The notes under the pieces were generated by a model. That model made no database searches. It was not told the origin of the DNA and saw only the letters and a list, made by a program, of their open reading frames with translations. Of a DNA stretch of 64,000 nt, positions 49,351 to 59,355 are shown piece by piece. Origin of the DNA: Actinomycetota bacterium. GTDB taxonomy: Bacteria > Actinomycetota > UBA4738 > HRBIN12. The number at the start of each line of letters is the position of its first letter. Within the stretch, counting starts at the first letter, position 1. The stretch spans positions 32,665-96,664 of the forward strand of contig DATHCP010000087.1 of NCBI GenBank assembly GCA_035490535.1, given 5' to 3'. A program made the position numbers and the translations under genes.

Positions 49351-49374
49351 GGAGCCCCTCTCCGGTTCGGACAG

Positions 49375-49467
49375 CGGAGGCGGACGGGAATCGAACCCGC
49401 CAGGGAGCTCGTCGCCCCCTCAACGGTTTTGAAGACCGCGGAGCCCACCAGGAACCCAGACGCCTCC
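49375..49467 (-). tRNA. selC: tRNA-Sec (anticodon UCA), 93 nt, CCA not encoded
   Basis: Read on the minus strand: acceptor GGAGGCG/CGCCTCC. Anticodon stem GCGGT/ACCGT with loop CUUCAAA (anticodon at 49432..49430). Long variable arm AGGGGGC..GCTCCCT. T arm GCGGG-TTCGATT-CCCGT. One extra nucleotide between the T stem and acceptor gives 13 stacked pairs. Discriminator is G. Confidence 0.7.
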
Positions 49468-49473
49468 GCCCGG

Positions 49474-49479
49474 AGCCTA
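49474..49479 (-). promoter_or_regulatory. candidate -10 box (TAGGCT) for the tRNA
   Basis: The minus-strand TAGGCT ends 6 nt before the first acceptor-stem G (49467). Confidence 0.4.
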
Positions 49480-49574
49480 GCCGACGGCGTCCCACGACGA
49501 TCCGACGATGATCCGGCATCTGATCGGTGCGCTTCCGCTCAATGTCGCGGCTCCGCCCTACGATGCTTCTCGAG

Positions 49575-50378
49575 ATGGAAGCGGCGTTCTTCGACCTCGA
49601 CAAGACGATCATCAGCCGGTCGTCCTCGCTGGCGCTGTCGCGCCCCTTGTACCGGGCTGGCATGGTCTCGCGCGGCCAGCTCTTGCGCGGCGCGTATGCC
49701 CAGCTGGTCTACCTGCTGGTCGGAGCGGACGAGCAGAAGATGGACCGCCTGAAGGAAGGGATGCTCCAGCTCACGAAGGGCTGGGATCGTGCGCAGGTCG
49801 AAGGCTTGGTCCAGGACGTGATCCTCGACGTGATCGATCCTTACGTCTATCAAGAGGCGCTCGATCTGATCGAGCTGCATCGCAGCGAGGGGCGCCGGAT
49901 CTACATCGTGTCGTCCTCGCCCGAGGAGGTCGTGCGTCCGCTCGCGCGCCACTTCGGCGTCTCCGGCGTGATCGCGACCCGAGCGCAGGTCGGCGCGGAC
50001 GGGCGATACACGGGGGAGCTCGAGTTCTACGCCTACGGCGAGCAGAAGGCGCTGGCGATCCGCCAGCTCGCGGACCGCGTCGACATCGATCTGGGCGGCT
50101 CCTACGCCTACTCGGACTCGATCACCGACCTCCCGATGCTCCTCGAGGTGGGACATCCGGTCGCGGTCAACGCCGACAAGGATCTGCGGCGCGAGGCCGA
50201 TGAACGGGGCTGGGAGATCCGCGACTTCCGGAGCCCCGTCCGACTGCGGAGCCGCATCGCCTCGGCCGTGCCGGCCCCGAAGACGAGCCTCGCTGCGGCG
50301 GGCGTCGGGGTCGCGGCGGTCGCGGCCGTGCTGGTTTGGGTCGCGCTCCGTTCCCGCGACCGACGCGACCCCGCCTGA
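49575..50378 (+). CDS. HAD-IB family hydrolase (SerB-like phosphatase) with C-terminal TM anchor
   Basis: MEAAFFDLDKT (DxDxT), SSSPEEVV, YSDSITDLPML. C-terminal span LAAAGVGVAAVAAVLVWVAL. ATG 49575 is preferred because TACGAT (49559-49564) overlaps the earlier ATG 49563. Confidence 0.8.
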   Translation: MEAAFFDLDKTIISRSSSLALSRPLYRAGMVSRGQLLRGAYAQLVYLLVGADEQKMDRLKEGMLQLTKGWDRAQVEGLVQDVILDVIDPYVYQEALDLIELHRSEGRRIYIVSSSPEEVVRPLARHFGVSGVIATRAQVGADGRYTGELEFYAYGEQKALAIRQLADRVDIDLGGSYAYSDSITDLPMLLEVGHPVAVNADKDLRREADERGWEIRDFRSPVRLRSRIASAVPAPKTSLAAAGVGVAAVAAVLVWVALRSRDRRDPA

Positions 50379-50454
50379 GGCGCGCTGCGTCGCCGCGGCG
50401 TTGCTGCTTCGCACGGCACGGGTGTACGTTGGATGTGGGTACCGAGAGGCACCC

Positions 50455-50573
50455 GCGAGGGGAGCAGAACCCACGCGCGAGTCATGCCGCGGGAGGCATG
50501 CCCCAGGACCCGGAGCGATGGCTCCGGCTCCCGGGGCACGTGCGGACAAGCGCCTGATACCTGCTCCCCTCGC
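50455..50573. repeat. perfect 13-bp inverted repeat enclosing 93 nt with internal hairpins
   Basis: GCGAGGGGAGCAG (50455-50467) pairs with CTGCTCCCCTCGC (50561-50573). Inside are CATGCC-GCGGGA-GGCATG (50483-50500) and CCGGAGC-GATG-GCTCCGG (50510-50527). It lies between two convergent genes. Confidence 0.6.
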
Positions 50574-50591
50574 TCACGGAGAGCCGCGGAC

Positions 50592-51833
50592 CTAGTCCTG
50601 GATCGAGGTCCGCCCGCGGAAGCGGAACAGCGCCCCTTGCGGGAAGGCGTCCGTTCCCGCCCATCCGAACCCCGAACGCGCCATCGCCTGCACGAGCTCG
50701 CTCGACTGCTCCGGCGGGTCGCCCGGCTTGTTCGTGGCGGGGTTCAACACGATCGCCGCACCGAACGGACGCGCGGTCAGCGGCCCCTCGGGATCGGTCG
50801 GGGAGGCGGTCGCGACGAAGCACGGTCCGACGCCCGCCACGTCGGCGGCATGGCCCATCGTTTGCAGCCGCGTCATCGCCGAACGCAAGAGCCCGAGGAT
50901 CCTCTCGTTACAGGTGACCGTGCCGAGGACGGGCAGGCTGGTCGACGTGATGTGGTCCTGGATCCAGGCCGGGTCGATCCGGATCAGCCCCGGCGCCGCG
51001 GGATCCGGATACGCGGTGAACTCGCCGAACCGGCGCTTCAACAGCACGGGGGGCAGCTCGCCGTCGTTCGCACGCAGGTACGGCGTCTCCCCCGGCGAGC
51101 GGACCTCGACGACCGGATGCGGCACGCCGAGTGGGAGGTACTGCACCATCTTCTGCGCGAGCTCCTGGGCGGTGATCGTGGCGTTGGGCGCGACGTGGAA
51201 CAGCACGTACCGGTCATGGGTCACGCCGAGCTGCTGGCCGGTGGCGCGGTCCACCAGGAGCTCGTAGCCGCCCATCATCGCGTCCGGCAGGGTGCCCACG
51301 ACCTTGATGTCCACGCTTCCGTCGAAGGTGAGGGTCGCGCCGCGACGCAGCCCCCGCAGCTGGGCCTCCGACTCGGACAGGATCCCCTGGCCCGGCTGGA
51401 GCTCCGCCACCTGACCCCGTTCCGGCTGCGGCAGGAAGGAGGGGAAGCTCCGCAGGTCCACCCCGGTGGTGTCGATCGGGATCATGTAGGGCGCGGTCGG
51501 CGTGTCGATCGCCACGCCGGCGCCGTTCGTCGAACCGGTCATCCACGCGATGTCGGCCGCTGCCGTCGTGGTGTTGGTGACGGCCGGGATCGCCGTGAGG
51601 CTCGCGCCGAAGTCCTCCGGCACGCCGCCCGGCACCCAAGCGAGCCAGGCTTCCGGCGTCGTGACGACCGGGCTCGACGGGACGCTCGTGGGAGGTGGGC
51701 CCGTGGGCGCCCCCTCGCCGGTGCTCTTCGAGCCGACCCGGCCGGCGGCGTAGACCAGCGTCGTTCCGGCCACGACGATCACGACGAACGCGGTGATGCC
51801 GCGGATCAAGGCGCTGCGGGAGAGGTCGTCCAT
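50592..51833 (-). CDS. membrane-anchored M15-peptidase-like protein with all zinc ligands replaced (probable pseudoenzyme)
   Basis: N-terminal TM ITAFVVIVVAGTTLVYAA. Middle domain resembles a MacB/FtsX periplasmic domain. The C-terminal domain aligns with 53561-54799 but reads ARPFGAAIVLN and QGALFRF where the paralog has SQHAYGAAIDIN and DGMHFEY. Confidence 0.7.
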   Translation of the reverse strand: MDDLSRSALIRGITAFVVIVVAGTTLVYAAGRVGSKSTGEGAPTGPPPTSVPSSPVVTTPEAWLAWVPGGVPEDFGASLTAIPAVTNTTTAAADIAWMTGSTNGAGVAIDTPTAPYMIPIDTTGVDLRSFPSFLPQPERGQVAELQPGQGILSESEAQLRGLRRGATLTFDGSVDIKVVGTLPDAMMGGYELLVDRATGQQLGVTHDRYVLFHVAPNATITAQELAQKMVQYLPLGVPHPVVEVRSPGETPYLRANDGELPPVLLKRRFGEFTAYPDPAAPGLIRIDPAWIQDHITSTSLPVLGTVTCNERILGLLRSAMTRLQTMGHAADVAGVGPCFVATASPTDPEGPLTARPFGAAIVLNPATNKPGDPPEQSSELVQAMARSGFGWAGTDAFPQGALFRFRGRTSIQD

Positions 51834-51879
51834 GGCCTCGCCCGAGTCTATGCCGGGCCACCGCGCCGCCCCGGGAGGC

Positions 51880-52131
51880 TCAGCCCGACGCGGCCGGGTG
51901 CTCGAGGATGCCGGCCAGGCGCTCGGCGCGCTCGGCCGCGCGCAGTGGCGCGCCCTCGGCGACCGCGCGCGCGATCACCCGAAGTTCGCGCTCGATCGTG
52001 GGCGTGAGCGCCGCGGCCCGCTGATGGACGAGCGGATCGAGCCGCTCCACCGCGCGGTCGAGGCGACCGAACGCCCCCCCGGCGGCGTCGCGCCGCCTGC
52101 GGTAGCGCTCGAGCGAGATCACGCGTCCCAT
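51880..52131 (-). CDS. small hypothetical protein (83 aa, helical, Arg-rich)
   Basis: ATG 52131. Third positions are strongly G/C. It fits the 35-46 nt spacing of the surrounding same-strand genes. No recognisable motif. Confidence 0.35.
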   Translation of the reverse strand: MGRVISLERYRRRRDAAGGAFGRLDRAVERLDPLVHQRAAALTPTIERELRVIARAVAEGAPLRAAERAERLAGILEHPAASG

Positions 52132-52166
52132 GCCGGCCACCGTAGCGGCCGGGTCTGACACGCTCC

Positions 52167-53231
52167 TCAGGCGGAGACCGCGCGCACGCTGGTCACCGGC
52201 GCGAGCCTCGGGGCGACCGTGAACCACGGCCCGCCGGTGCTGCCGAAGACCTCGCCGCTCGTGGCCCCGAACCACAGGCTCAGGTCCTCTCCCGAGCCCG
52301 AGGTCCCGAAGGCCTGGCGCAGGATCGTGATCCACGCGTCGTGCGCAGGCAGCCCCTCGCCCGCGACCCACGACGCGCCGGCGTCCCGCGTGCCGAACAC
52401 GCGTACCGTCCCCTCGGGGGTGACGCGGTCCTCCGCGCCCACCAGCGGGATCACGAAGGCGCTGTCCGGATCGGCCGGATCGATCGCGAGCGGGAAGCCG
52501 AAGCCGCTCGGAAGTGGCGCGGCGATGTCGTTCCAGGTGATGCCGGCGTCGTCGCTCCGATACACGCTTCCGTGGAACTGCATGAACAGCCGCTCCGGCC
52601 GCAGGGGAGCGCGATGCATGTTATGGACGCAGAGCTGGTTCGTGCCCTCCCGCGCGTCCTCGGGCATGTACTCCGGAACGAGTCCGGTGAAGCCCGACCG
52701 CCACGACGCGCCCCCGTCCTCGGTCAGCCACACGCCCGCAGCCGACACGCCGATCGCCAGCCGGTCCGGGTGGCCCGGCCACGGACAGATCGAGTGCAGC
52801 GCCAGGCCGCCGGCGCCCGGCTGCCAATCGCCCTCGATCCGCTGGGCCCACAGCGCGTCGTTCAGCGACCAGGACTCGCCGCCGTCGGTGCTGACGAACA
52901 ACGCGGCCGGCGCGACGCCCGCGTAGAGCACGCCGTCGGCTTCGCCCGGCTGCACGATCCAGATCCGCTCGACCGCCTCGTCCTTCCCCTCCGGGAACGC
53001 GGGACCCGCCGCGGTTCGCCACTCCTCGGCCGTGACGTCGTCCGTCCACATCAGCCGGGGACCGTAGAACCCGCTGGTCACCGAGGCGAAGGTCCGGCCC
53101 GTCCGCGGATCTCGAACGGCGAACTCGACGACCTGTCCCGCGAACGCACGCGTCGTGACGCGGAACGTTCCCGGCCCCTCGCCCTGCAGGACGAACAGCC
53201 CTTTCTTCGTGCCGATCAAGAGCTCGTGCAT
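52167..53231 (-). CDS. BNR/Asp-box repeat beta-propeller protein (sialidase-fold, function unknown)
   Basis: Four Asp-boxes: STDGGESW, TEDGGASW, SDDAGITW and TRDAGASW. No signal peptide. ATG 53231 lies 1 nt after the upstream stop. Confidence 0.8.
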   Translation of the reverse strand: MHELLIGTKKGLFVLQGEGPGTFRVTTRAFAGQVVEFAVRDPRTGRTFASVTSGFYGPRLMWTDDVTAEEWRTAAGPAFPEGKDEAVERIWIVQPGEADGVLYAGVAPAALFVSTDGGESWSLNDALWAQRIEGDWQPGAGGLALHSICPWPGHPDRLAIGVSAAGVWLTEDGGASWRSGFTGLVPEYMPEDAREGTNQLCVHNMHRAPLRPERLFMQFHGSVYRSDDAGITWNDIAAPLPSGFGFPLAIDPADPDSAFVIPLVGAEDRVTPEGTVRVFGTRDAGASWVAGEGLPAHDAWITILRQAFGTSGSGEDLSLWFGATSGEVFGSTGGPWFTVAPRLAPVTSVRAVSA

Positions 53232-53232
53232 C

Positions 53233-53496
53233 TCATCCCCCTCCGCTGATCGACGGGAGGACCTGCAGGCGGTCCTCGGGCCGCACCGACGCGTCCTCGC
53301 GCACCGCTTCGCCGTTCACGAACACGTTCACATGGCGGCGGACCTTGCCGCGCTCGTCGAGGATCCAGCCGCTGGTCCGCGGCCATGCCCGCTCCAGCTC
53401 GCGAAGGACCTCGCCGACGGTGGCGCCGTCGAGACGGATCTCGCGGTTGCCGCCGGCCAGCTCGCGGAGCGGGGCGCGGAGCGCGACGAGGGGCAC
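53233..53496 (-). CDS. MoaD/ThiS-family ubiquitin-like beta-grasp protein ending in Gly-Gly-Gly
   Basis: 87 aa. ...VNVFVNGEAVREDASVRPEDRLQVLPSISGGG* follows the MoaD/ThiS pattern (hydrophobic core, C-terminal diglycine directly before the stop). Confidence 0.75.
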   Translation of the reverse strand: MPLVALRAPLRELAGGNREIRLDGATVGEVLRELERAWPRTSGWILDERGKVRRHVNVFVNGEAVREDASVRPEDRLQVLPSISGGG

Positions 53497-53560
53497 GGTC
53501 CGAGCCTAGCCGTTCGGAACGACGCGGAGGTCCGGCGCCCGGACGAGGTCGCGGGGCGCC

Positions 53561-54799
53561 TCACGCCGGAGGTGGCTTCCCGTACTCGAAGTGCATCCCA
53601 TCGGGGATCAGGAAGTCCCCGCCCCAGTTGAAGCCCCAGCGTTCGAAGATCCGGACGATCCGCGGGTCCATCGTCGGTCTGCTCCCGTACGGGTTCTCGG
53701 GGGCGTTGATGTCGATCGCGGCGCCGTAGGCGTGTTGGGATGGAGGTGCGATCGTGGACCGCGCCACGGTCCGGGCGGCGTAGCAGCCCGAGTAGACGTG
53801 GATCTCGCCGCCGAGGCCAGCCGCCTGCACCTGGCCGAGCGCGCCGATCAGCATCGGGAACAGGGCGTCGTTGCACGTGACCTGGCCGAGGAGCGGGACG
53901 CTCCGCGTGGAGATGTGGGCGTCGTACCACGAGGTCGACATCGTGAGCTCGGCCGGGTCCGAGGTCTGCGGATACGCGGCGAACTCGCCGAACACCTCCT
54001 TCATCACGATCGGGGGATCGACGCCACTCGCCACCCGCACGAACCGCGTGCCGCCCGGGCGGACGGTGCGCAGCGGATCGTCGGCGGCGATCAGCCCGCG
54101 CACGTCGGCCGTGAATCGTGTGAGGGTCAGGTCGGGATCGCCGAGCGCGAGCAGGTACCGGTCGTGCGTGATCCCGAGTCGCGCGCCGACGTCGCGGCTC
54201 ACCAGCAGCTCCGACCAACCGACGTCGTCATCGGGTACCACGGCTCCCACCGTCACCGTCGTACCGCCGAACGTCATCGAGCCACCCACGCCGATCCTGC
54301 GCAGGTCGGCGGACCGCTGGCCGAGCACCGCATCGCCGGCGTCGAGCGCCTGCACGATCCGCGCCCGGTCCCCGCCGGGGACGAACGGCGCGTACGCGGT
54401 GGGGTCGACCGCGAACGCGTCGATCGGGATCGCGTACGGCGGCGAAGGCCGGTCGACGACGTTCCCGTCGGCGTCGCGGCTGGAGTTCATCCATAGGGTG
54501 TCGCCGGCGACGACGACGGTGGTCGTGAGTCCGTCGGCATGCACGATCCGGTTCCGGAAGCCGGCCGGGAATCCGCCGGGCATCCACGCGAGCCACGCCG
54601 GGACCCCGCCGTCCGGTGCGACCGGAACCGACGCGGAGCCCGACGCGGCCGGCGCAGCCGGGGTGGTCGGGGATGGCGCGCCGGCGACATCGGCGTCCCG
54701 CCCGGGGCGCAGCAGGACGACGAGCGCGAGCACGGCGACGCCGATCACGGCGACGAACGAACGCCGGCGGCGGACCTGTGAGCGGGTGACGTGCGACAT
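53561..54799 (-). CDS. membrane-anchored M15 family zinc D-Ala-D-Ala carboxypeptidase/endopeptidase-like protein
   Basis: N-terminal TM FVAVIGVAVLALVVLL. MacB/FtsX-periplasmic-like middle domain. Intact H-x6-D (SQHAYGAAIDIN) and D-x-x-H (PDGMHFEY) zinc/catalytic motifs. Confidence 0.8.
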   Translation of the reverse strand: MSHVTRSQVRRRRSFVAVIGVAVLALVVLLRPGRDADVAGAPSPTTPAAPAASGSASVPVAPDGGVPAWLAWMPGGFPAGFRNRIVHADGLTTTVVVAGDTLWMNSSRDADGNVVDRPSPPYAIPIDAFAVDPTAYAPFVPGGDRARIVQALDAGDAVLGQRSADLRRIGVGGSMTFGGTTVTVGAVVPDDDVGWSELLVSRDVGARLGITHDRYLLALGDPDLTLTRFTADVRGLIAADDPLRTVRPGGTRFVRVASGVDPPIVMKEVFGEFAAYPQTSDPAELTMSTSWYDAHISTRSVPLLGQVTCNDALFPMLIGALGQVQAAGLGGEIHVYSGCYAARTVARSTIAPPSQHAYGAAIDINAPENPYGSRPTMDPRIVRIFERWGFNWGGDFLIPDGMHFEYGKPPPA

Positions 54800-54838
54800 G
54801 TGCGTTCCGAGGCTACGACGAGCGGGGCGGGAAGACGG

Positions 54839-55312
54839 CTAGCGACGCAGGGCCCGGGCGAGGGCTTCCTCGAGCTCCTCGGCCGTTCTGCCCGATGCGG
54901 TCGCGAGGGCCGCCACGTCGCCGGCGCGCAGCGACACGCTCTCGGTCGGCGGCTCGCGTCGAAGGGAGCTGACCTGTCGGACGAATCCCGAGACCAATGC
55001 CCCCTCGGCGGAGCCGAGGGATTCGAGGGTCGTGAGGTCGATCTCGGCCTCCGGACGGCCTTCGGTGGCGCGGACGATCTCCGCGAGGATCCGGTCGGGC
55101 GGAACCTCGTACAGCTTGCACAGCAGGATGAAGCGCTCGAGGCTGATGTTCCGCTCGCCACGCTCGTAGCCGGCGACCGAGGTCGCCATGAACCGGCCCT
55201 CGGAGGCTGCACCGACGCCGCGCAGCGTCAAACCGCGACGCTGCCGCGCGCGACGGAGCGCTCGACCGATCTCGACCGCGAGAGGTTCTGGCTCCAACCG
55301 TTCCCTCACCAT
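54839..55312 (-). CDS. XRE family helix-turn-helix transcriptional regulator
   Basis: ATG 55312. HTH IGRALRRARQRRGLTLRGVGAASEGRFMATSVAGYERGERNISLERFILLCKLYEV. Near-consensus -10 TATACT on the minus strand at 55354..55349. Confidence 0.75.
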   Translation of the reverse strand: MVRERLEPEPLAVEIGRALRRARQRRGLTLRGVGAASEGRFMATSVAGYERGERNISLERFILLCKLYEVPPDRILAEIVRATEGRPEAEIDLTTLESLGSAEGALVSGFVRQVSSLRREPPTESVSLRAGDVAALATASGRTAEELEEALARALRR

Positions 55313-55694
55313 CCGACCTGCCCTGCGGGAAGGGGAAGCCTTCGGCAGAGTATATGAACGGCCGCGGGCCGCGCACCATCCCTTCGGGTGGTCATGGAGC
55401 GGCATCCGGGACGCGCTCCGACGCATCGCGGCCCTATCCCGGCCGCGTTCCGCGGTCGCGAACGGGCGCGGCCCGGAGGCATCGGGGGTCGCTCTGCGTC
55501 CGGATCGCGAACGGATCGTGAACGCTCAGGAGATGGGGGCTTGCAAGAACGCGCTCCGCGTCCTAGTGTCTGGCTACGTCCTTTGCGGTATCGGGACGTG
55601 GCTCATCGGCCGGGAGGGCACAGGTGAGGGCTCACCCTTCCAGTCGTGCACCGTTGGCAGTGGGGGACAACTGGCATCGCGAGGAGGGGTCGCT

Positions 55695-55805
55695 GTGAAG
55701 GCGCTCCTGGAGGGTGATGAGGTGCGTCTGAGCATCGAGATGCAACGCCCGCGGGGTACCGACGTCCGGTCGGAACGATGCGCGTTCGAGGGGTTGTTCC
55801 GATGA
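55695..55805 (+). CDS. candidate 36-aa upstream ORF translationally coupled to the nucleotide-sugar dehydrogenase
   Basis: GAGGAGGGG (55681-55689) lies 5-7 nt before GTG 55695. Stop TGA 55803-55805 overlaps ATG 55802 (ATGA). Confidence 0.3.
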   Translation: MKALLEGDEVRLSIEMQRPRGTDVRSERCAFEGLFR

Positions 55806-57118
55806 GCGCCGCCGGATCCACGAACGACCTTCCCGCCGCAGCCGCGCAGCGCACGGGTCGCGTTGCGGTCGTCGGCCAGGGGTACGTCGGGCTGACGTTG
55901 GCATCGGCCGCGGCCGCGGCCGGCTTCCCGGTCACCGGCATCGACAACGACGTCGCCCGGATCGACGCGCTCACGCGCGGAGAGTTGGCGGTTCCGGGCG
56001 TGGACCGTGTGACGTTCGATGCCGCGATCCAGAGCGGGGGCATCCGGTTCGCTGGATCGGCCGACGCGGTGGCCGATGCGGCGTTCATCTTCATCTGCGT
56101 GCCGACGCCGCTGCGCGATGGCGCGCCGGATCTGAGCTACGTTGAGGCCGCGGGCCGGTCCGTCGCCGCGCACCTGCGCGCCGGAGCGATGGTGGTGCTC
56201 GAGTCCACGACGTATCCGGGAACCACGGATCAGCTGCTCCAGCCGCTCCTCGAGCAGGGCTCGGGGCTGCGGGCGGGCGTGGACTTCCTGCTCGCCTATT
56301 CGCCCGAGCGGATCGATCCCGGGAGCGCCGAGTTCACGATGCGGAACACCCCGCGGGTGGTCGGCGGCACCACGCCGGAGGCCACCGACGCGGCGGTGGC
56401 GTTCTACGAGCAGCTCGTGGACAAGGTGTTCCCCGTGTCGTCCACGCGGACGGCCGAGACCGCGAAGCTGCTCGAGAACACGTTCCGGCACATCAACGTC
56501 GCGCTGGTGAACGAGCTGACGATGCTGACCCACGACCTCGACATCGACGTGTGGGAGGTCATCGACGCGGCCTCCACCAAGCCCTTCGGCTTCATGCCCT
56601 TCTATCCGGGCCCCGGGATCGGCGGGCACTGCATCCCGCTCGATCCGACGTACCTGTCATGGCAGGTCCGCCGGCAGACCGGCCGGCGCTTCGGCGTGCT
56701 CGAGGCGGCCCAGGACGTGAACGAGCGGATGCCGAACTACGTGGCCAGCCGGGTCGCCGAGATCCTGAACGACGTGGGCCGCGCGGTCCGCGGCAGCAAG
56801 ATCTTCGTCCTGGGTGTGACCTACAAGGCCGACGTGGGCGACGTGCGCGAGTCCCCATCCCTGATGGCGATGCAGGCCCTCTACCGCAAGGGCGCGGAGA
56901 TCTCCTTCCACGACCCCTTCATCGAGGAGGTGCCCCTGAACGGCGGTCGGATCCGGCGGACGGAGCTGGCCGAGGGCCTGGCCACGGCGGACCTGGTCCT
57001 GCTGCTCACGCCGCACAGCTCCTACGACGTGGACCAGATCGCGGAGCACGCGGCGCTCGTGTTCGACACGCGGAACGCCTACGGCGACGCGTCGCACGAC
57101 AACGTGATCCGCCTGTAA
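55802..57118 (+). CDS. nucleotide-sugar 6-dehydrogenase (UDP-GlcNAc/UDP-ManNAc dehydrogenase, WbpA/WecC-like)
   Basis: VAVVGQGYVGLTLA Rossmann motif and catalytic Cys in GIGGHCIPLDP. ATG 55802 (or 55778). Confidence 0.85.
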   Translation: MSAAGSTNDLPAAAAQRTGRVAVVGQGYVGLTLASAAAAAGFPVTGIDNDVARIDALTRGELAVPGVDRVTFDAAIQSGGIRFAGSADAVADAAFIFICVPTPLRDGAPDLSYVEAAGRSVAAHLRAGAMVVLESTTYPGTTDQLLQPLLEQGSGLRAGVDFLLAYSPERIDPGSAEFTMRNTPRVVGGTTPEATDAAVAFYEQLVDKVFPVSSTRTAETAKLLENTFRHINVALVNELTMLTHDLDIDVWEVIDAASTKPFGFMPFYPGPGIGGHCIPLDPTYLSWQVRRQTGRRFGVLEAAQDVNERMPNYVASRVAEILNDVGRAVRGSKIFVLGVTYKADVGDVRESPSLMAMQALYRKGAEISFHDPFIEEVPLNGGRIRRTELAEGLATADLVLLLTPHSSYDVDQIAEHAALVFDTRNAYGDASHDNVIRL

Positions 57119-57175: not shown

Positions 57176-59173
57176 TCAGCCCGCGGCGTCGGGCGGCACC
57201 GTCGTCACGATCGCGTCGGGGGCCGCGTGCGACAGATCGAGCATCGGCTCGGGCTCGCTGGTCCGCACGACGATCCGCGGCGTGGTCTCCACGGGAGGCG
57301 GTGCCAACCCGACCTGGGGGAAGTCCGGCACCAGCAGTCGCAGGCACTCGTCCAGCTTCCACCAGTCGCGACGCTCGGCCGCGCCGATCAACTCCTCGAT
57401 CATCGCGCGGCCTTCTTCGTCCTCGTCGCACTCGTGCGTGGCCATCATGATGTGCTCGAACGTCGTGCCCGACAGCTCTTCCTCGTGCGTGAAGAGCTCC
57501 TCATGCAGCTTCTCTCCAGGCCGCAGCCCCGTGTAGCGGATCTTCACGTCGTCCTCGTCCGCGCCGGCGAGCCGGATCATCTCCTTCGCCAGGTCGAGGA
57601 TCAGCACCGGGGTGCCCATGTCGAGGACGTAGACCGCGCCGTTCACGCCGAGCGCGCCCGCCTCGACGACGAGCCGGCTCGCCTCCGGGATCGTCATGAA
57701 GTAGCGGGTCATGCGGCGGTCGGTCAGCTTGATCGGACCGCCCGTGCGGATCTGCTCCTCGAAGATCGGCACGACCGAACCGCGGCTCCCGAGCACGTTG
57801 CCGAAGCGCACCGACGCGAACACTTGGTCCTGTTCGGCATGCGCGCCGACCATCCGAACGATCCGCTCGGCGAGGTGCTTCGTCACTCCGAGCATCGAGG
57901 CGGGATGGACGGCCTTGTCGGTGGAGACGTTCACGAACCGGGTGACGCCAGCCGCGAGGGCGGCCTCGGCGACGTTGCGCGTTCCCGCGACGTTGTTGAG
58001 GATCGCCTCATCGGGGTCTGCCTCCATCAGCGGCACGTGCTTGTGCGCCGCGGCATGGAACACGACCGACGGTCGGAAGCGCTCCATCACGTTGAGGACC
58101 TTGATGCGGTCGCGGATGTCACCGACCACGATCGTGAAGTCGAGCTCGGGGAGCGTGTTCTGGAGCTCGCGGCCGATGTCGTGCAGCGTGTTCTCGCCGT
58201 GCCCGAACAGGATGACCTTGCCGGGCCCCGCGCTCGCGATCTGCCGGACCAGCTCGGATCCGACCGAGCCGCCGGCGCCGGTGACGAGCGCGGTACGGCC
58301 TTCCAAGTAGGAGGGCGGGAGGTCCAGCGGAACCGGCTTGCGGCGCAAGAGGTCTTCGACCTTCACCGGCCGCAGGCCGGCGAGCTGGGCCTCGCCGAGG
58401 AGGACCTGTGTCACGCCCGGCAGGATCCGGCACGGAACGTCGGCCGCGCTCGCCACGTCGACCACCCGCTTGGTCGCGCGCCCTCCTGCGGCCGGCATCG
58501 AGATCAACACCTCGTCGACCTGGTGCTCCTTGACCACCTGCGGCAGGTCGTCGATGCCGCCGAGCACGTCCGTTCCGGCGATCTTCAGGCGGCGCTTCAC
58601 CGGGTCGTCATCGAGGTACCCCACGAGCTCCTTGCCGTGGTCGGGGTGGCGGCGGATCTCCCAGCCGAGGCGCGTGCCCGCGTCGCCGGCGCCGACGAGC
58701 AGCACCCGGCGCGGACCCGCGCGGTGCAGGCTGGTCTTCGTCTGCAACCGCCACTGACGCTCGGCGTACAGGCGCGCCAACACGCGGATCGCGGACATGC
58801 CGACGAGCGCGACGACACCTTCGATCAGCGGGACCGTCCGCGGGAAGAGGCCGGCCCGTGCGTACCAGACGAGCCCGATCCCGAACAGCACCGCGGTCCC
58901 CGTGACGACGGCTCCCACGACACGGAGCAGATCCTCGATCGTCACACGCTCCCACGCCTGACGCGGCAGACCGAACGCCAGCAACAGCACCGCCTTGATC
59001 GACATGCCGGCCAGCGCGTACAGCGGGATCAGCGTCCACATCTCGCCGATGCGGTTCGGCGCTCGCAGCGGGAAGGCGACCAATGCAGCAAGCGTCCAGA
59101 TCGTCAGATCGGTTGCGAACTTCGCCCGGAACCAGAAGCGTCCTTTCGGGCTGTCGTGCACGGAGCGCGTCAT
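57176..59173 (-). CDS. membrane-bound polysaccharide biosynthesis protein, CapD/WbpM/PglF-type UDP-sugar 4,6-dehydratase
   Basis: ATG 59173 behind GAAGGAA. Four N-terminal TM spans. LVTGAGGSVGSEL Rossmann motif. Polysacc_synt_2-like core. Confidence 0.85.
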   Translation of the reverse strand: MTRSVHDSPKGRFWFRAKFATDLTIWTLAALVAFPLRAPNRIGEMWTLIPLYALAGMSIKAVLLLAFGLPRQAWERVTIEDLLRVVGAVVTGTAVLFGIGLVWYARAGLFPRTVPLIEGVVALVGMSAIRVLARLYAERQWRLQTKTSLHRAGPRRVLLVGAGDAGTRLGWEIRRHPDHGKELVGYLDDDPVKRRLKIAGTDVLGGIDDLPQVVKEHQVDEVLISMPAAGGRATKRVVDVASAADVPCRILPGVTQVLLGEAQLAGLRPVKVEDLLRRKPVPLDLPPSYLEGRTALVTGAGGSVGSELVRQIASAGPGKVILFGHGENTLHDIGRELQNTLPELDFTIVVGDIRDRIKVLNVMERFRPSVVFHAAAHKHVPLMEADPDEAILNNVAGTRNVAEAALAAGVTRFVNVSTDKAVHPASMLGVTKHLAERIVRMVGAHAEQDQVFASVRFGNVLGSRGSVVPIFEEQIRTGGPIKLTDRRMTRYFMTIPEASRLVVEAGALGVNGAVYVLDMGTPVLILDLAKEMIRLAGADEDDVKIRYTGLRPGEKLHEELFTHEEELSGTTFEHIMMATHECDEDEEGRAMIEELIGAAERRDWWKLDECLRLLVPDFPQVGLAPPPVETTPRIVVRTSEPEPMLDLSHAAPDAIVTTVPPDAAG

Positions 59174-59355
59174 CGTGGAAGGTTCCTTCTCGTCAACACG
59201 ACCGGGGGGATACGCAAGGCGCGACTTTCGGCCGAAGGCGCGTCTGCGGCCGAGGTTATATCCTGCATGCGCTGTAGGCAAGACCCAGCTCGCGAACGTG
59301 CGACGTCGGATGGCCATCGGGCGGGCTGTGTCGGCCAGACGGAGGACAGCAGAGC

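Follow-up and report, generated by a model that had tools for sequence, protein, structure and literature searches.

In the MoaD-MoaE, ThiS-ThiG and CysO-CysM systems, the gene of a small beta-grasp carrier with a C-terminal Gly-Gly lies beside that of its partner. At the cell envelope, M15 peptidases of the VanY and Ply500 type (Peptidase_M15_4) bear an H-x6-D...H zinc-ligand motif, the periplasmic domain found in MacB/LolC/LolE/FtsX-type ABC transporters controls wall hydrolases in the case of FtsEX, and the ligand-less LytM factors EnvC and NlpD are degenerate hydrolase-like regulators. The regulator BldD of Streptomyces carries the c-di-GMP signature RXD-X8-RXXD (PMC4151990). A fused carrier has its precedent in MoaX, reported as a fused MoaD-MoaE protein that is cleaved (PMC4326299).

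Proteins resembling these components are encoded side by side in our window, i.e. the whole stretch of 64,000 nucleotides of an Actinomycetota bacterium that was analysed. Inspection of its open reading frames confirmed six genes on the minus strand at 50592-55312, with gaps of 39, 64, 1, 35 and 46 nt, as a sequence-only reading of this DNA had described (one strand, gaps of 1-64 nt); its domain calls (XRE, M15, ThiS/MoaD-like and BNR) are upheld by Pfam scores. We also agree with it on the lack of an internal terminator, as a scan of 49400-56000 gave no site resembling an intrinsic terminator (shuffles give 1.3) and no intergenic fold in the block was better than its own shuffles. Given the short gaps and no predicted terminators, read-through co-transcription is possible in this genome. 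The GC content of the block (0.72) is the same as that of its surroundings. Our preferred reading, to which we assign a probability of about 0.6, is that of a syntenic block, specific to this lineage, in which the genes belong to separate transcription units and do not make up one system, because promoter-like signals precede the individual units, the ThiS-BNR pair is independent, and the other genes are loosely attached.

The ThiS-BNR pair comprises a beta-grasp protein from the ThiS/MoaD family, of CysO/SAMP1 type, whose SGG tail is conserved (53233..53496, minus strand), and a BNR/Asp-box beta-propeller (52167..53231, minus strand) that starts 1 nt past the ThiS stop, with GGAGGGGG, upstream of the BNR start, falling inside the ThiS 3' end. 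The former matched ThiS in Pfam (46.8 bits), ends in ...SISGGG, and scored 58.8 with the NCBIfam SAMP1 model (cut-off 60) vs. 24.6 with the MoaD equivalog model (cut-off 66); its PDB matches (SAMP1, CysO, 4n6e_B and 1v8c) all lie near E 1e-7, with sulfur carriers and SAMP1 as the closest solved relatives. The propeller, with a Pfam BNR score of 31.1 bits, four Asp-boxes and no RIP motif, belongs to the family of PDB 3b7f ("Glycosyl hydrolase, BNR repeat"), which it matches over the whole length at E 1.3e-64, although 3b7f is a structural-genomics entry known from its structure only. The predicted structure model of the propeller had a pLDDT of 53; residues H146, H203, Q218, H220 and R225 do not vary between Actinomycetota and Proteobacteria. 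The family is a large one of 805 clusters at 50% identity (E<=1e-30), set against about 1000 relatives found for M15a and 166 for sm83. Neither protein has a signal sequence, in agreement with their earlier description as cytoplasmic-looking.

The two genes adjoin in 80/80 GTDB species loci; about 0-15 nt separate them in 78 loci, and 33 and 42 nt in the remaining two. They are also fused in frame, in at least nine species and in the additional protein clusters P0362 and P0386. The pair occurs in Ralstonia, Burkholderia, Cupriavidus, Mitsuaria and Pseudomonas and, with the order reversed, in Arthrobacter; among ten distant loci, six had the pair with no M15, sm83, XRE or HAD gene nearby, and four had a BNR homologue without an adjacent ThiS. 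This distribution indicates an old, widespread and self-contained pair. Its likeness to the sulfur-carrier pairs lies in the Gly-Gly carrier encoded next to a putative partner, in the probable translational coupling and in the fusions; in contrast to those pairs, however, the propeller is unrelated to MoaE, ThiG or CysM, no MoaE or ThiG gene is found nearby, a motif search for E1 and JAMM genes found none in the window or at any locus, and the GG is usually trailed by 1-3 residues (52/81 species). Here the pair is known from its genes, and its chemistry is drawn by analogy; in the literature searched, we found no pairing of a 3b7f-family propeller with a ThiS-like gene. A candidate -10 hexamer, TAGGCT (53503..53508, minus strand), lies 6 nt before the ThiS GTG, and in 70 of 79 species the last base of a TANNNT is 5-8 nt away from the ThiS start, vs. 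a background of 0.3%. In M. tuberculosis, the centre of TANNNT lies 7-12 bp upstream of the transcription start (PMC3898074). Such proximity to the ThiS start would fit a leaderless mRNA.

On the envelope side, M15a (53561..54799, minus strand) is a 412-aa protein with an active-type, VanY-like M15 zinc peptidase domain (Peptidase_M15_4, 54.9 bits vs. a cut-off of 25, residues 354-406) displaying the H-x6-D...H motif; H-D-H ligands are present in 34 of 36 upstream M15 copies, and about 1000 relatives of M15a were found. Its AlphaFold2 model predicts a transmembrane helix at residues 6-30, followed at about 65-250 by a confidently modelled domain that matches the periplasmic domains of MacB, LolC/E and YknZ (Foldseek E 7e-6, probability 1.0, target TM-score 0.54-0.57), while the match to the Ply500 L-Ala-D-Glu peptidase 2vo9 is weak. 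M15a thus differs from VanY and Ply500 in that the M15 domain is C-terminal in a membrane-anchored protein, behind a MacB-type domain, and from the transporters in having one transmembrane helix, neither permease bundle nor ATPase, and a domain fused straight to a hydrolase rather than recruiting one.

The last gene of the block, M15d (50592..51833, minus strand), gave no family match in Pfam or NCBIfam but is a paralog of M15a (34% identity over 345 residues, E 5e-62), and each of the two has one N-terminal hydrophobic helix, as expected from the earlier proposal of a membrane-anchored pair. That M15d lacks its ligands had also been noticed; all three are lost, with R, V and L where H, D and H are expected. 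Altogether, 17 downstream M15 copies (that of the window included) are without ligands, yet they are full-length open reading frames that retain the FGAAI.LN and PQGALFRF/Y motifs, and 11 other downstream copies have H-D-H intact or nearly so. Ligand-less M15d is found almost only where M15a is directly upstream of ThiS. Judged by its sequence, M15d is a maintained pseudo-peptidase, comparable to EnvC and NlpD as a conserved ligand-less wall-hydrolase paralog kept beside active copies, although it belongs to another fold family.

Each M15 gene has a putative promoter of its own, as judged from motif conservation. TAGCCT (54810..54815, minus strand) lies 10 nt before the M15a ATG and recurs 7-10 nt before the M15a start in eight loci (L007, L010, L013, L029, L043, L050, L051 and L053), with TAGCCC at this position in L011; of the loci named here, only L007 has an XRE gene upstream. 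Similarly, TAGACT (51845..51850, minus strand) lies 11 nt before the M15d ATG; in 15 loci, the M15d start is preceded at 6-12 nt by TAGACT, TACACT or TAAACT, and L077 has TAGACT about 23 nt upstream.

Between BNR and M15d lies sm83 (51880..52131, minus strand), encoding an orphan, lineage-specific protein of 83 aa with no hydrophobic segment and no family match in Pfam, NCBIfam or PADLOC; the homologues found number only 166, each of them unnamed or hypothetical. We regard sm83 as a real gene since its 54 orthologues keep a constant length (82-87 aa) and substitutions are biased to the third codon position (424/424/829 by position). Directly upstream is a conserved element (52139..52161, minus strand) consisting of GTGTCAGAC, 8 nt and then TACGGT, with TGTC[AG]G in 49 of 52 species and [TC]ANNNT ending 5-8 nt before the ATG in 52/52, and it travels with sm83 where other genes have been inserted after BNR. 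A putative promoter may reside here; in 44% of loci, however, the element is spanned by a 6-8 bp hairpin of variable sequence, and the frequent placement of the hexamer within this hairpin suggests a transcribed leader instead of a promoter. A GTGTC motif is found upstream of sm83 in 39/52 species and upstream of some ThiS genes (17/79).

The first gene (54839..55312, minus strand) encodes an XRE-type regulator that shares the domain order of BldD, with an N-terminal HTH (HTH_31, 37.8 bits in Pfam) and a BldD_C-like C-terminal domain (22.7 bits, under the 27-bit cut-off), and among PDB entries it is best matched by 2ewt, the DNA-binding domain of BldD, at E 1e-9. Its RRE-X8-RAGD motif is spaced as in the c-di-GMP signature of BldD, but the first half is RxE and not RxD, the NCBIfam BldD model gives only 66 bits vs. 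an equivalog cut-off of 250, and the gene is not conserved at this locus, being present in only 3 of 80 related loci: L007, where it adjoins M15a as in the window, and L015 and L017, which have no upstream M15 copy. The TATACT hexamer that had been pointed out upstream of the gene is indeed at 55349..55354 (minus strand), 36 nt upstream of the ATG, and is conserved together with the leader in the closest relative, L007. There, the ATG is replaced by ATC; the GTG at 55309 may therefore be the true start.

Outside the cluster, the plus strand carries at 50425..50580 a structured sRNA candidate that lacks annotation and has a -35 (TTGCTG, 50401-50406) and a -10 (TACGTT, 50425-50430) of its own. 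Its 11-bp closing stem reaches to about 50571, which leaves some 20 nt to the M15d stop codon. In its alignment, 97.3% of cells are paired vs. 39-47% with partners slid (RNAalifold, pair counts), with 11 compensatory pairs. The covariance model yielded one strong match each in the window and in 48 loci, the 42-nt core is present in 78 metagenome contigs, and no Rfam family matched.

Comparison of over 80 species of related uncultured soil Actinomycetota, with 80 GTDB species loci for adjacency counts, showed that the six-gene block is real and recurs, with the complete compact layout in 9 of 55 loci and ThiS-BNR alone in 7/55. In 47/55 loci, all from one lineage, ThiS-BNR has a same-strand M15 gene no more than 10 kb away, and look-ups anchored on M15a found ThiS-BNR at most 3.3 kb away in 4/4 cases. 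The M15 genes and sm83 keep a constant order and strand, with unrelated genes often between them (phosphatase-, TolB-, GyrI-, methyltransferase- and sulfatase-like genes as well as that for prolyl-tRNA synthetase, proS). The proximity of M15 to ThiS-BNR looks like inherited synteny, because an unrelated HAD gene on the opposite strand is retained at a similar rate (48/63), on a par with sm83 (51/63). The lineage also keeps other unrelated flanking genes (PadR and Tad pilus genes along with HAD). Nevertheless, the constancy of order and strand, together with the M15 genes nearby, leaves room for selection for proximity.

These data bear on how far the block can be seen as functionally united. 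The sequence-only reading had put forward, as speculation, one envelope-remodelling or envelope-sensing module, a single operon transcribed from TATACT under its own regulator, here the XRE/BldD-like protein. The common strand, the short gaps, the missing terminators and the TATACT with its leader in L007 accord with such an operon; we nonetheless judge it quite improbable, given that the XRE gene is missing from 77/80 related loci, that conserved -10-like hexamers precede M15a, ThiS, sm83 and M15d internally, that insertions interrupt the layout in most species, and that ThiS-BNR occurs without M15 in other phyla. The alternative offered by that reading, unrelated gene pairs that are merely adjacent, comes close to our data; what it misses is the persistence of M15/ThiS-BNR co-occurrence within the lineage, the two having been found together outside this window too. 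As a whole, the earlier interpretation is thus partly supported. A looser arrangement, in which separately promoted ThiS-BNR, sm83 and M15a/M15d share one pathway in this lineage, such as making or sensing a modified wall component, or are co-regulated, seems to us unlikely though the strongest of the rivals. It would account for the conserved order and strand, the M15 counts, the near restriction of ligand-less M15d to one arrangement and the GTGTC motif common to sm83 and some ThiS genes, but all cases come from a lineage that retains unrelated flanks as well, unrelated genes are placed between the units, ThiS-BNR is found alone in Proteobacteria, in Arthrobacter and in some related loci, and the products would reside in different compartments.

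Two further possibilities concern what the genes are. We consider it very improbable that the ThiS-like protein serves molybdopterin or thiamine synthesis as a regular MoaD or ThiS and is encoded by chance next to an unrelated sialidase or glycosidase: the Pfam ThiS match would fit, as would the labels "MoaD/ThiS family" and "exo-alpha-sialidase" given to relatives, yet the MoaD equivalog score is low, MoaE, ThiG and an E1 motif are all absent nearby, the adjacency persists across phyla and changes in gene order and extends to natural fusions, and the propeller has neither signal peptide nor RIP motif. That the XRE, ubiquitin-like and peptidase genes constitute a mobile or anti-phage defence island is scarcely credible, since apart from weak HTH matches to PADLOC control proteins (E 0.002-0.008) nothing speaks for it, the other five proteins had no PADLOC match, the GC content equals that of the surroundings, the place in the chromosome does not shift between species and an integrase is absent.

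We therefore return to a syntenic block of separate units and to what each may do. The BldD-like regulator, on its own leadered promoter, would be a recent neighbour, and sm83 would form a unit of its own as an orphan small protein. ThiS-BNR would be an old two-gene cassette with translational coupling, its own -10 probably giving rise to a leaderless mRNA; if the pair works as MoaD-MoaE, ThiS-ThiG and CysO-CysM do, the CysO/SAMP1-like protein, its tail probably thiocarboxylated by an E1 encoded elsewhere, would hand its Gly-Gly tail to the cytoplasmic propeller carrying the invariant His/His/Gln/His set, in a sulfur or ubiquitin-like chemistry. M15a would act outside the cytoplasm as a membrane-anchored peptidase, presumably on peptidoglycan, with its VanY-type domain hung on a MacB/LolC-type periplasmic domain, and M15d, a maintained and catalytically dead copy, is most plausibly a non-catalytic partner or regulator of the active wall M15 enzymes.

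The six minus-strand ORFs that the sequence-only reading had placed in one cluster were recovered by our ORF check, in transcription order: an XRE-type regulator gene (54839-55312; HTH_31 and a sub-threshold BldD_C match), M15a (53561-54799), an M15-peptidase gene with Peptidase_M15_4 at the C-terminus of its product, ThiS (53233-53496), encoding a ThiS/MoaD-like beta-grasp protein that ends in SISGGG, BNR (52167-53231), encoding an Asp-box beta-propeller, sm83 (51880-52131), encoding an 83-aa orphan protein of no family, and M15d (50592-51833), a ligand-less M15 paralog likewise of no family. The gaps between them are 39, 64, 1, 35 and 46 nt, the TATACT hexamer lies at 55349-55354, and the description of the cluster was correct as to coordinates, gaps, domain calls and ligand loss. 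As had also been claimed, no internal terminator was found in a promoter/terminator scan, with intergenic folds indistinguishable from shuffles. The six genes thus resemble a single operon in having the same strand, short gaps and no internal terminator, but not in gene set and adjacency, which are not conserved, nor in promoters, as conserved -10-like hexamers precede four internal genes. A reading of the cluster as an anti-phage defence system was rejected, given that PADLOC returned just weak HTH matches among the cluster proteins and that base composition is uniform, with 72% GC throughout the window. Among GTDB species representatives, the nearest one, at 82% BNR identity, is a soil MAG.

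Alignments across species of the 45-50 nt upstream of start codons provide the clearest evidence against a single operon. Ahead of ThiS, 70 of 79 loci carry a TAGGCT/TAGACT/TATACT hexamer with its end 5-8 nt from the start, against a rate of 0.3% when positions in these loci are picked at random. M. tuberculosis, in which leaderless mRNAs are frequent, has TANNNT centred 7-12 bp ahead of the transcription start (PMC3898074); the geometry of the hexamer fits a transcription start at the ThiS start codon. In species with the compact layout, the start of M15d is preceded at 6-12 nt by TAGACT/TACACT/TAAACT and that of M15a, at the same distance, by TAGCCT, while the TATACT of the XRE gene is conserved in the closest relative together with a 36-nt leader. 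A single nucleotide separates the ThiS stop from BNR, and GGAGGGGG lies within the ThiS 3' end. The promoters so assigned to all units are putative, being drawn from motif conservation. The promoter/terminator scan yielded one weak intragenic promoter-like site and zero terminators, and it is blind to promoters consisting of TANNNT only because it requires a -35 element.

Conservation of the neighbourhood was surveyed from a BNR homologue alignment, yielding 80 species-level loci with flanks of up to 10 kb that were searched by tblastn with the six cluster proteins and flanking genes; directional counts were restricted to loci whose flank on the side in question measured 3 kb or more. ThiS stands immediately upstream of BNR in all 80 loci, at a spacing of about 0-15 nt in 78; the remaining pairs are 33 and 42 nt apart. 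Of 67 loci, 13 have an M15 gene immediately before ThiS and 38 have one anywhere upstream; sm83 is found directly after BNR in 37 of 63 (anywhere downstream in 51) and is followed downstream by an M15 gene in 24 of 63, while an unrelated HAD hydrolase gene on the opposite strand is kept in 48 of 63. Among the 55 loci with both flanks, the five non-XRE genes have the full compact layout in 9, and ThiS-BNR is alone in 7. The genes inserted between units are mixed (phosphatase-like, TolB-like, GyrI-like, methyltransferase, sulfatase and beta-lactamase-like), including a prolyl-tRNA synthetase gene in one complete genome.

As to the proposition that the M15 genes and the ThiS/BNR pair never co-occur elsewhere, they do: some M15 gene lies within 10 kb of ThiS-BNR, on the same strand every time, in 47 of the 55 two-flank loci of this lineage. 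M15a has only about 1000 relatives, all belonging to this lineage, and in all four look-ups anchored on M15a in long contigs, ThiS-BNR-sm83-HAD was found downstream (directly adjacent in three, at 3 kb in one). Within this lineage the block is thus a stable chromosomal segment, and its unrelated flanks are equally stable. Upstream of M15a one usually finds a Tad-pilus cluster, encoded on the opposite strand; at many GTDB loci and at three further loci (L098, L099 and L100), this cluster (TadE, T2SSF, CpaF-like ATPase, ParA-like) is accompanied by an RCC1-repeat protein. In the window, the usual Tad position is taken by the XRE gene and a polysaccharide-synthesis cluster that includes a UDP-glucose dehydrogenase gene (55778-57118, plus strand) and a CapD-like gene (57176-59317, minus strand).

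The XRE gene was detectable at only 3 of 80 loci, adjoining M15a at one (L007), with the upstream M15 copy absent from the other two (L015 and L017). Being absent from 77 of 80 related loci, it cannot be the dedicated regulator of the block. Its product has a BldD-like domain order and matches best, among PDB entries, the DNA-binding domain of BldD (E 1e-9). It was nevertheless rejected as BldD proper, scoring 66.4 bits against the cut-off of 250 for the BldD equivalog NF050110 and departing from the bipartite c-di-GMP signature of BldD, RXD-X8-RXXD (PMC4151990): residues ~117-132 read RRE-X8-RAGD, and RSE-X8-R(A/T)GD in the L015 and L017 orthologues, with the spacing shared and the first acidic residue E instead of D. 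Together with the compact layout in 9 of 55 loci and the internal -10-like hexamers, the rarity of the XRE gene leaves unsupported the proposal of a single new envelope module with a regulator of its own.

The alternative, that unrelated genes happen to lie side by side, comes close to the data once two refinements are made, one for the ThiS-BNR pair and one for its M15 and sm83 neighbours. The BNR family is an extensive one, with more than 6000 word-search matches and 805 clusters at 50% identity with E<=1e-30, and includes PDB entry 3b7f (E 1.3e-64). On annotated chromids and plasmids of P. aeruginosa, R. solanacearum and Mitsuaria, the gene right before an "exo-alpha-sialidase" is annotated as a "MoaD/ThiS family protein"; ThiS is likewise followed by BNR in B. 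cenocepacia and C. metallidurans (tblastn), the order is reversed in Arthrobacter, and the propeller has no adjoining ThiS in Nonomuraea, two Streptomyces and Rhodobacter. Relatives of M15, sm83, XRE or HAD were found at none of the 10 distant BNR loci. Furthermore, ThiS and BNR are fused in frame in 9 of 80 species (L060, L063, L065, L066, L071, L072, L074, L075 and L084), in the form ...SISGG-(4-5 residues)-VLVGTRKGLF..., and two BNR-family cluster representatives, P0362 and P0386, carry Pfam ThiS and then BNR within a single protein of 453-454 aa. Throughout these fusions SGG is internal and followed by a linker of 4-12 residues. Adjacency across phyla, survival of a change in order, and fusion together argue for a direct functional link of ThiS with BNR only; this pair is a genuine and widespread two-gene system. 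The M15, sm83 and pseudo-M15 genes are neighbours specific to this lineage, and selection may or may not have kept them close. Another protein, P0089 (447 aa), was rejected as a fusion, as it is a BNR homologue with an internal duplication of ~90 residues that is probably an assembly or chimera artefact. In P0369 (704 aa), a Ser/Thr protein kinase domain is fused to a propeller of the same family. Nothing relevant to a MoaD/ThiS-plus-BNR or propeller system turned up in the literature searched, subscription journals being outside its scope.

The ThiS-like protein matches Pfam ThiS at 46.8 bits (cut-off 22.5), and its closest solved relatives, all at about E 1e-7, are SAMP1, which is the best PDB relative, M. 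tuberculosis CysO, the ThiS/MoaD-family chain 4n6e_B and a Thermus MoaD-related protein. It falls narrowly under the cut-off of the SAMP1 equivalog NF041918 (58.8 vs. 60 bits) and far under that of the MoaD equivalog TIGR01682 (24.6 vs. 66.15 bits); with the latter score and no MoaE gene among its neighbours, an identity as MoaD proper was rejected. ThiG and E1 genes are likewise missing nearby. The SGG motif is conserved, forming the C-terminal end in 15 of 81 species, standing 1-3 residues before it in 52 and being internal to the BNR fusion in 9; the protein of the window terminates in SGGG. A search for E1 and JAMM motifs came back negative for the 64-kb window and every fetched locus, and an E1-like adenylyltransferase to activate the ThiS-like protein for thiocarboxylate formation could be encoded elsewhere. 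The propeller (Pfam BNR 31.1 bits, cut-off 27) has four S-x-D-x-G-x-x-W Asp-boxes at residues 114, 170, 226 and 281. Its relatives are automatically annotated as exo-alpha-sialidases, a function we rejected for a protein that lacks both the sialidase RIP motif (F/YRIP) and a signal peptide. From Actinomycetota to Proteobacteria, residues H146, H203, Q218, H220 and R225 are invariant; Cys201 was dropped as a catalytic residue because Proteobacteria carry Asp there. Given a shallow alignment, the AlphaFold2 model of BNR reached a pLDDT of 53 and was kept out of fold search and residue mapping.

Known carrier-partner pairs, namely MoaD-MoaE or MoaX, ThiS-ThiG and CysO-CysM, offer a model for the ThiS-like protein and the propeller; MoaX is a fused and cleaved MoaD-MoaE (PMC4326299). 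By analogy with these pairs, we infer that the propeller would be a dedicated partner receiving the Gly-Gly tail of the carrier. The beta-grasp domain may instead have a purely structural role. A more far-reaching reading would make ThiS-BNR an undescribed cross-phylum ubiquitin-like/sulfur-carrier system, with the cytoplasmic propeller and its invariant His/His/Gln/His set as dedicated partner of the Gly-Gly tail (acceptor enzyme, tail processor or conjugation target). In this lineage, functional ties of the pair would extend to the M15 peptidase that carries the MacB-type domain and to its pseudo-peptidase, as well as to the orphan sm83 protein and the new sRNA. We regard this combination as improbable, at roughly 0.15.

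The M15a protein matches the VanY-like family Peptidase_M15_4 at residues 354-406 (Pfam, 54.9 bits, cut-off 25), and its zinc ligands H, D and H are present (SQHAYGAAID and DGMHFEY), as they are in 34 of 36 M15 copies upstream of ThiS. In sequence, its C-terminal domain weakly resembles the endolysin peptidases Ply500 and LysB4. The AlphaFold2 model (mean pLDDT 71, ~90 for residues 65-250) begins with a transmembrane helix at the N-terminus, continues through a disordered linker rich in Pro and Ala to a confidently modelled middle domain, and closes with the M15 domain; in Foldseek the model matched the periplasmic domains of MacB, LolC, LolE and YknZ (E 7e-6 to 1e-4, probability 1.0, target TM-score <=0.57). 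M15d shares 34% identity with M15a over 345 residues and, in agreement with its description as ligand-less, has R, V and L at the aligned H, D and H positions. It had no Pfam or NCBIfam match at E<=0.1, its homology to M15 being visible through M15a only; judging by its sequence, M15d should be regarded as a homologue of M15 peptidases and not be filed as an active one. Among the copies downstream of sm83, two groups can be told apart, one with H-D-H and a SHHxWG motif, the other ligand-less (17 including that of the window) and restricted to a sub-clade with the compact layout. In the latter, the replacements are variable (R/K/A/Q; V/A/E/Q/L/R; L/F), and the surrounding motifs are conserved in full-length ORFs. 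Full length, retained motifs and confinement to one sub-clade mark it as a maintained pseudo-enzyme and not a decaying gene, and M15d may plausibly partner with active M15 enzymes in a non-catalytic role. Elsewhere in the lineage, M15 genes directly follow a pair of ECF sigma and zf-HC2-type anti-sigma genes, a context that fits an envelope role of the M15 genes and points to their control by envelope stress. The order sigma, anti-sigma, M15 occurs at L022, L026, L028, L036 and L049, and anti-sigma, M15 at L018, L039, L041 and L058.

That sm83 is a real gene, as had been proposed, is borne out by its 54 orthologues of 82-87 aa, with 424/424/829 substitutions by codon position; these data overruled the antisense ORF preferred by a GC3-based gene caller. 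Upstream of it (52139-52161, minus strand) is an element composed of the nearly invariant 9-mer GTGTCAGAC and a -10-like hexamer. The 9-mer recurs there in almost every locus (TGTC[AG]G in 49 of 52), followed after 8-9 nt by [TC]ANNNT, which ends 5-8 nt before the sm83 ATG in 52 of 52, and the element travels with sm83 when genes are inserted after BNR. In 44% of loci the hexamer is spanned by a 6-8 bp hairpin of variable sequence, which raises a transcribed leader as an alternative to a promoter; accordingly, the element could be a promoter/operator or an RNA leader. We rejected GTGTCAGAC as a regulon motif, its sole exact copy in the window being that at sm83 and matches with one mismatch being fewer than chance. 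GTGTC, the reverse complement of the WhiA motif GACAC, was considered as a possible WhiA site. The similar GUGCAGAC sits inside the neighbouring sRNA candidate.

This candidate (50401-50580, plus strand), a structured RNA of ~145 nt with its own -35/-10, is located in the 213-nt gap that follows the HAD gene (49527-50378) and reaches to the M15d stop (50592); this gap holds a sequence more conserved than the genes around it. In a 28-sequence alignment, the fold comprises a 5' hairpin with GNRA or UUCG loops and then a three-way junction with an 11-bp closing stem; 97.3% of cells are paired vs. 39-47% with partners slid, and 11 pairs show compensatory changes vs. at most 4 in controls. The covariance model gave one strong match (125-173 bits; antisense 25-36) in the window and in each of 48 of the 80 loci, the 42-nt core recurs in 78 metagenome contigs, every time between HAD and sm83 or M15, and no Rfam family matches it. 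In one clade the sRNA is inverted and still has its own promoter, TTGCG(G/C), a 17-18 nt spacer and TACGGT, which makes it a gene in its own right. The closing stem is palindromic and, read on the minus strand, could also end the sm83-M15d transcript. Between the GMC oxidoreductase and HAD genes, a selenocysteine tRNA gene with anticodon TCA (49374-49467, minus strand) was recognized by Rfam (72.6 bits) and ARAGORN.

For a high-GC actinobacterium, these data imply that same-strand genes with small gaps need not constitute an operon, as gaps of 35-64 nt can conceal short-leader or leaderless promoters. With the sRNA candidate, an uncultured soil lineage contributes a new structured RNA, and the fusion of a MacB-like domain to M15, with a maintained dead paralog, would add an architecture to the control of wall hydrolases. 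The part most worth pursuing is ThiS-BNR, which is conserved in Actinomycetota as well as Beta- and Gammaproteobacteria, occurs in some cases as a fusion, and has a solved structure in 3b7f but no assigned function. If true, a new partner class for ThiS/MoaD-type carriers would widen the prokaryotic ubiquitin-like and sulfur-transfer systems.
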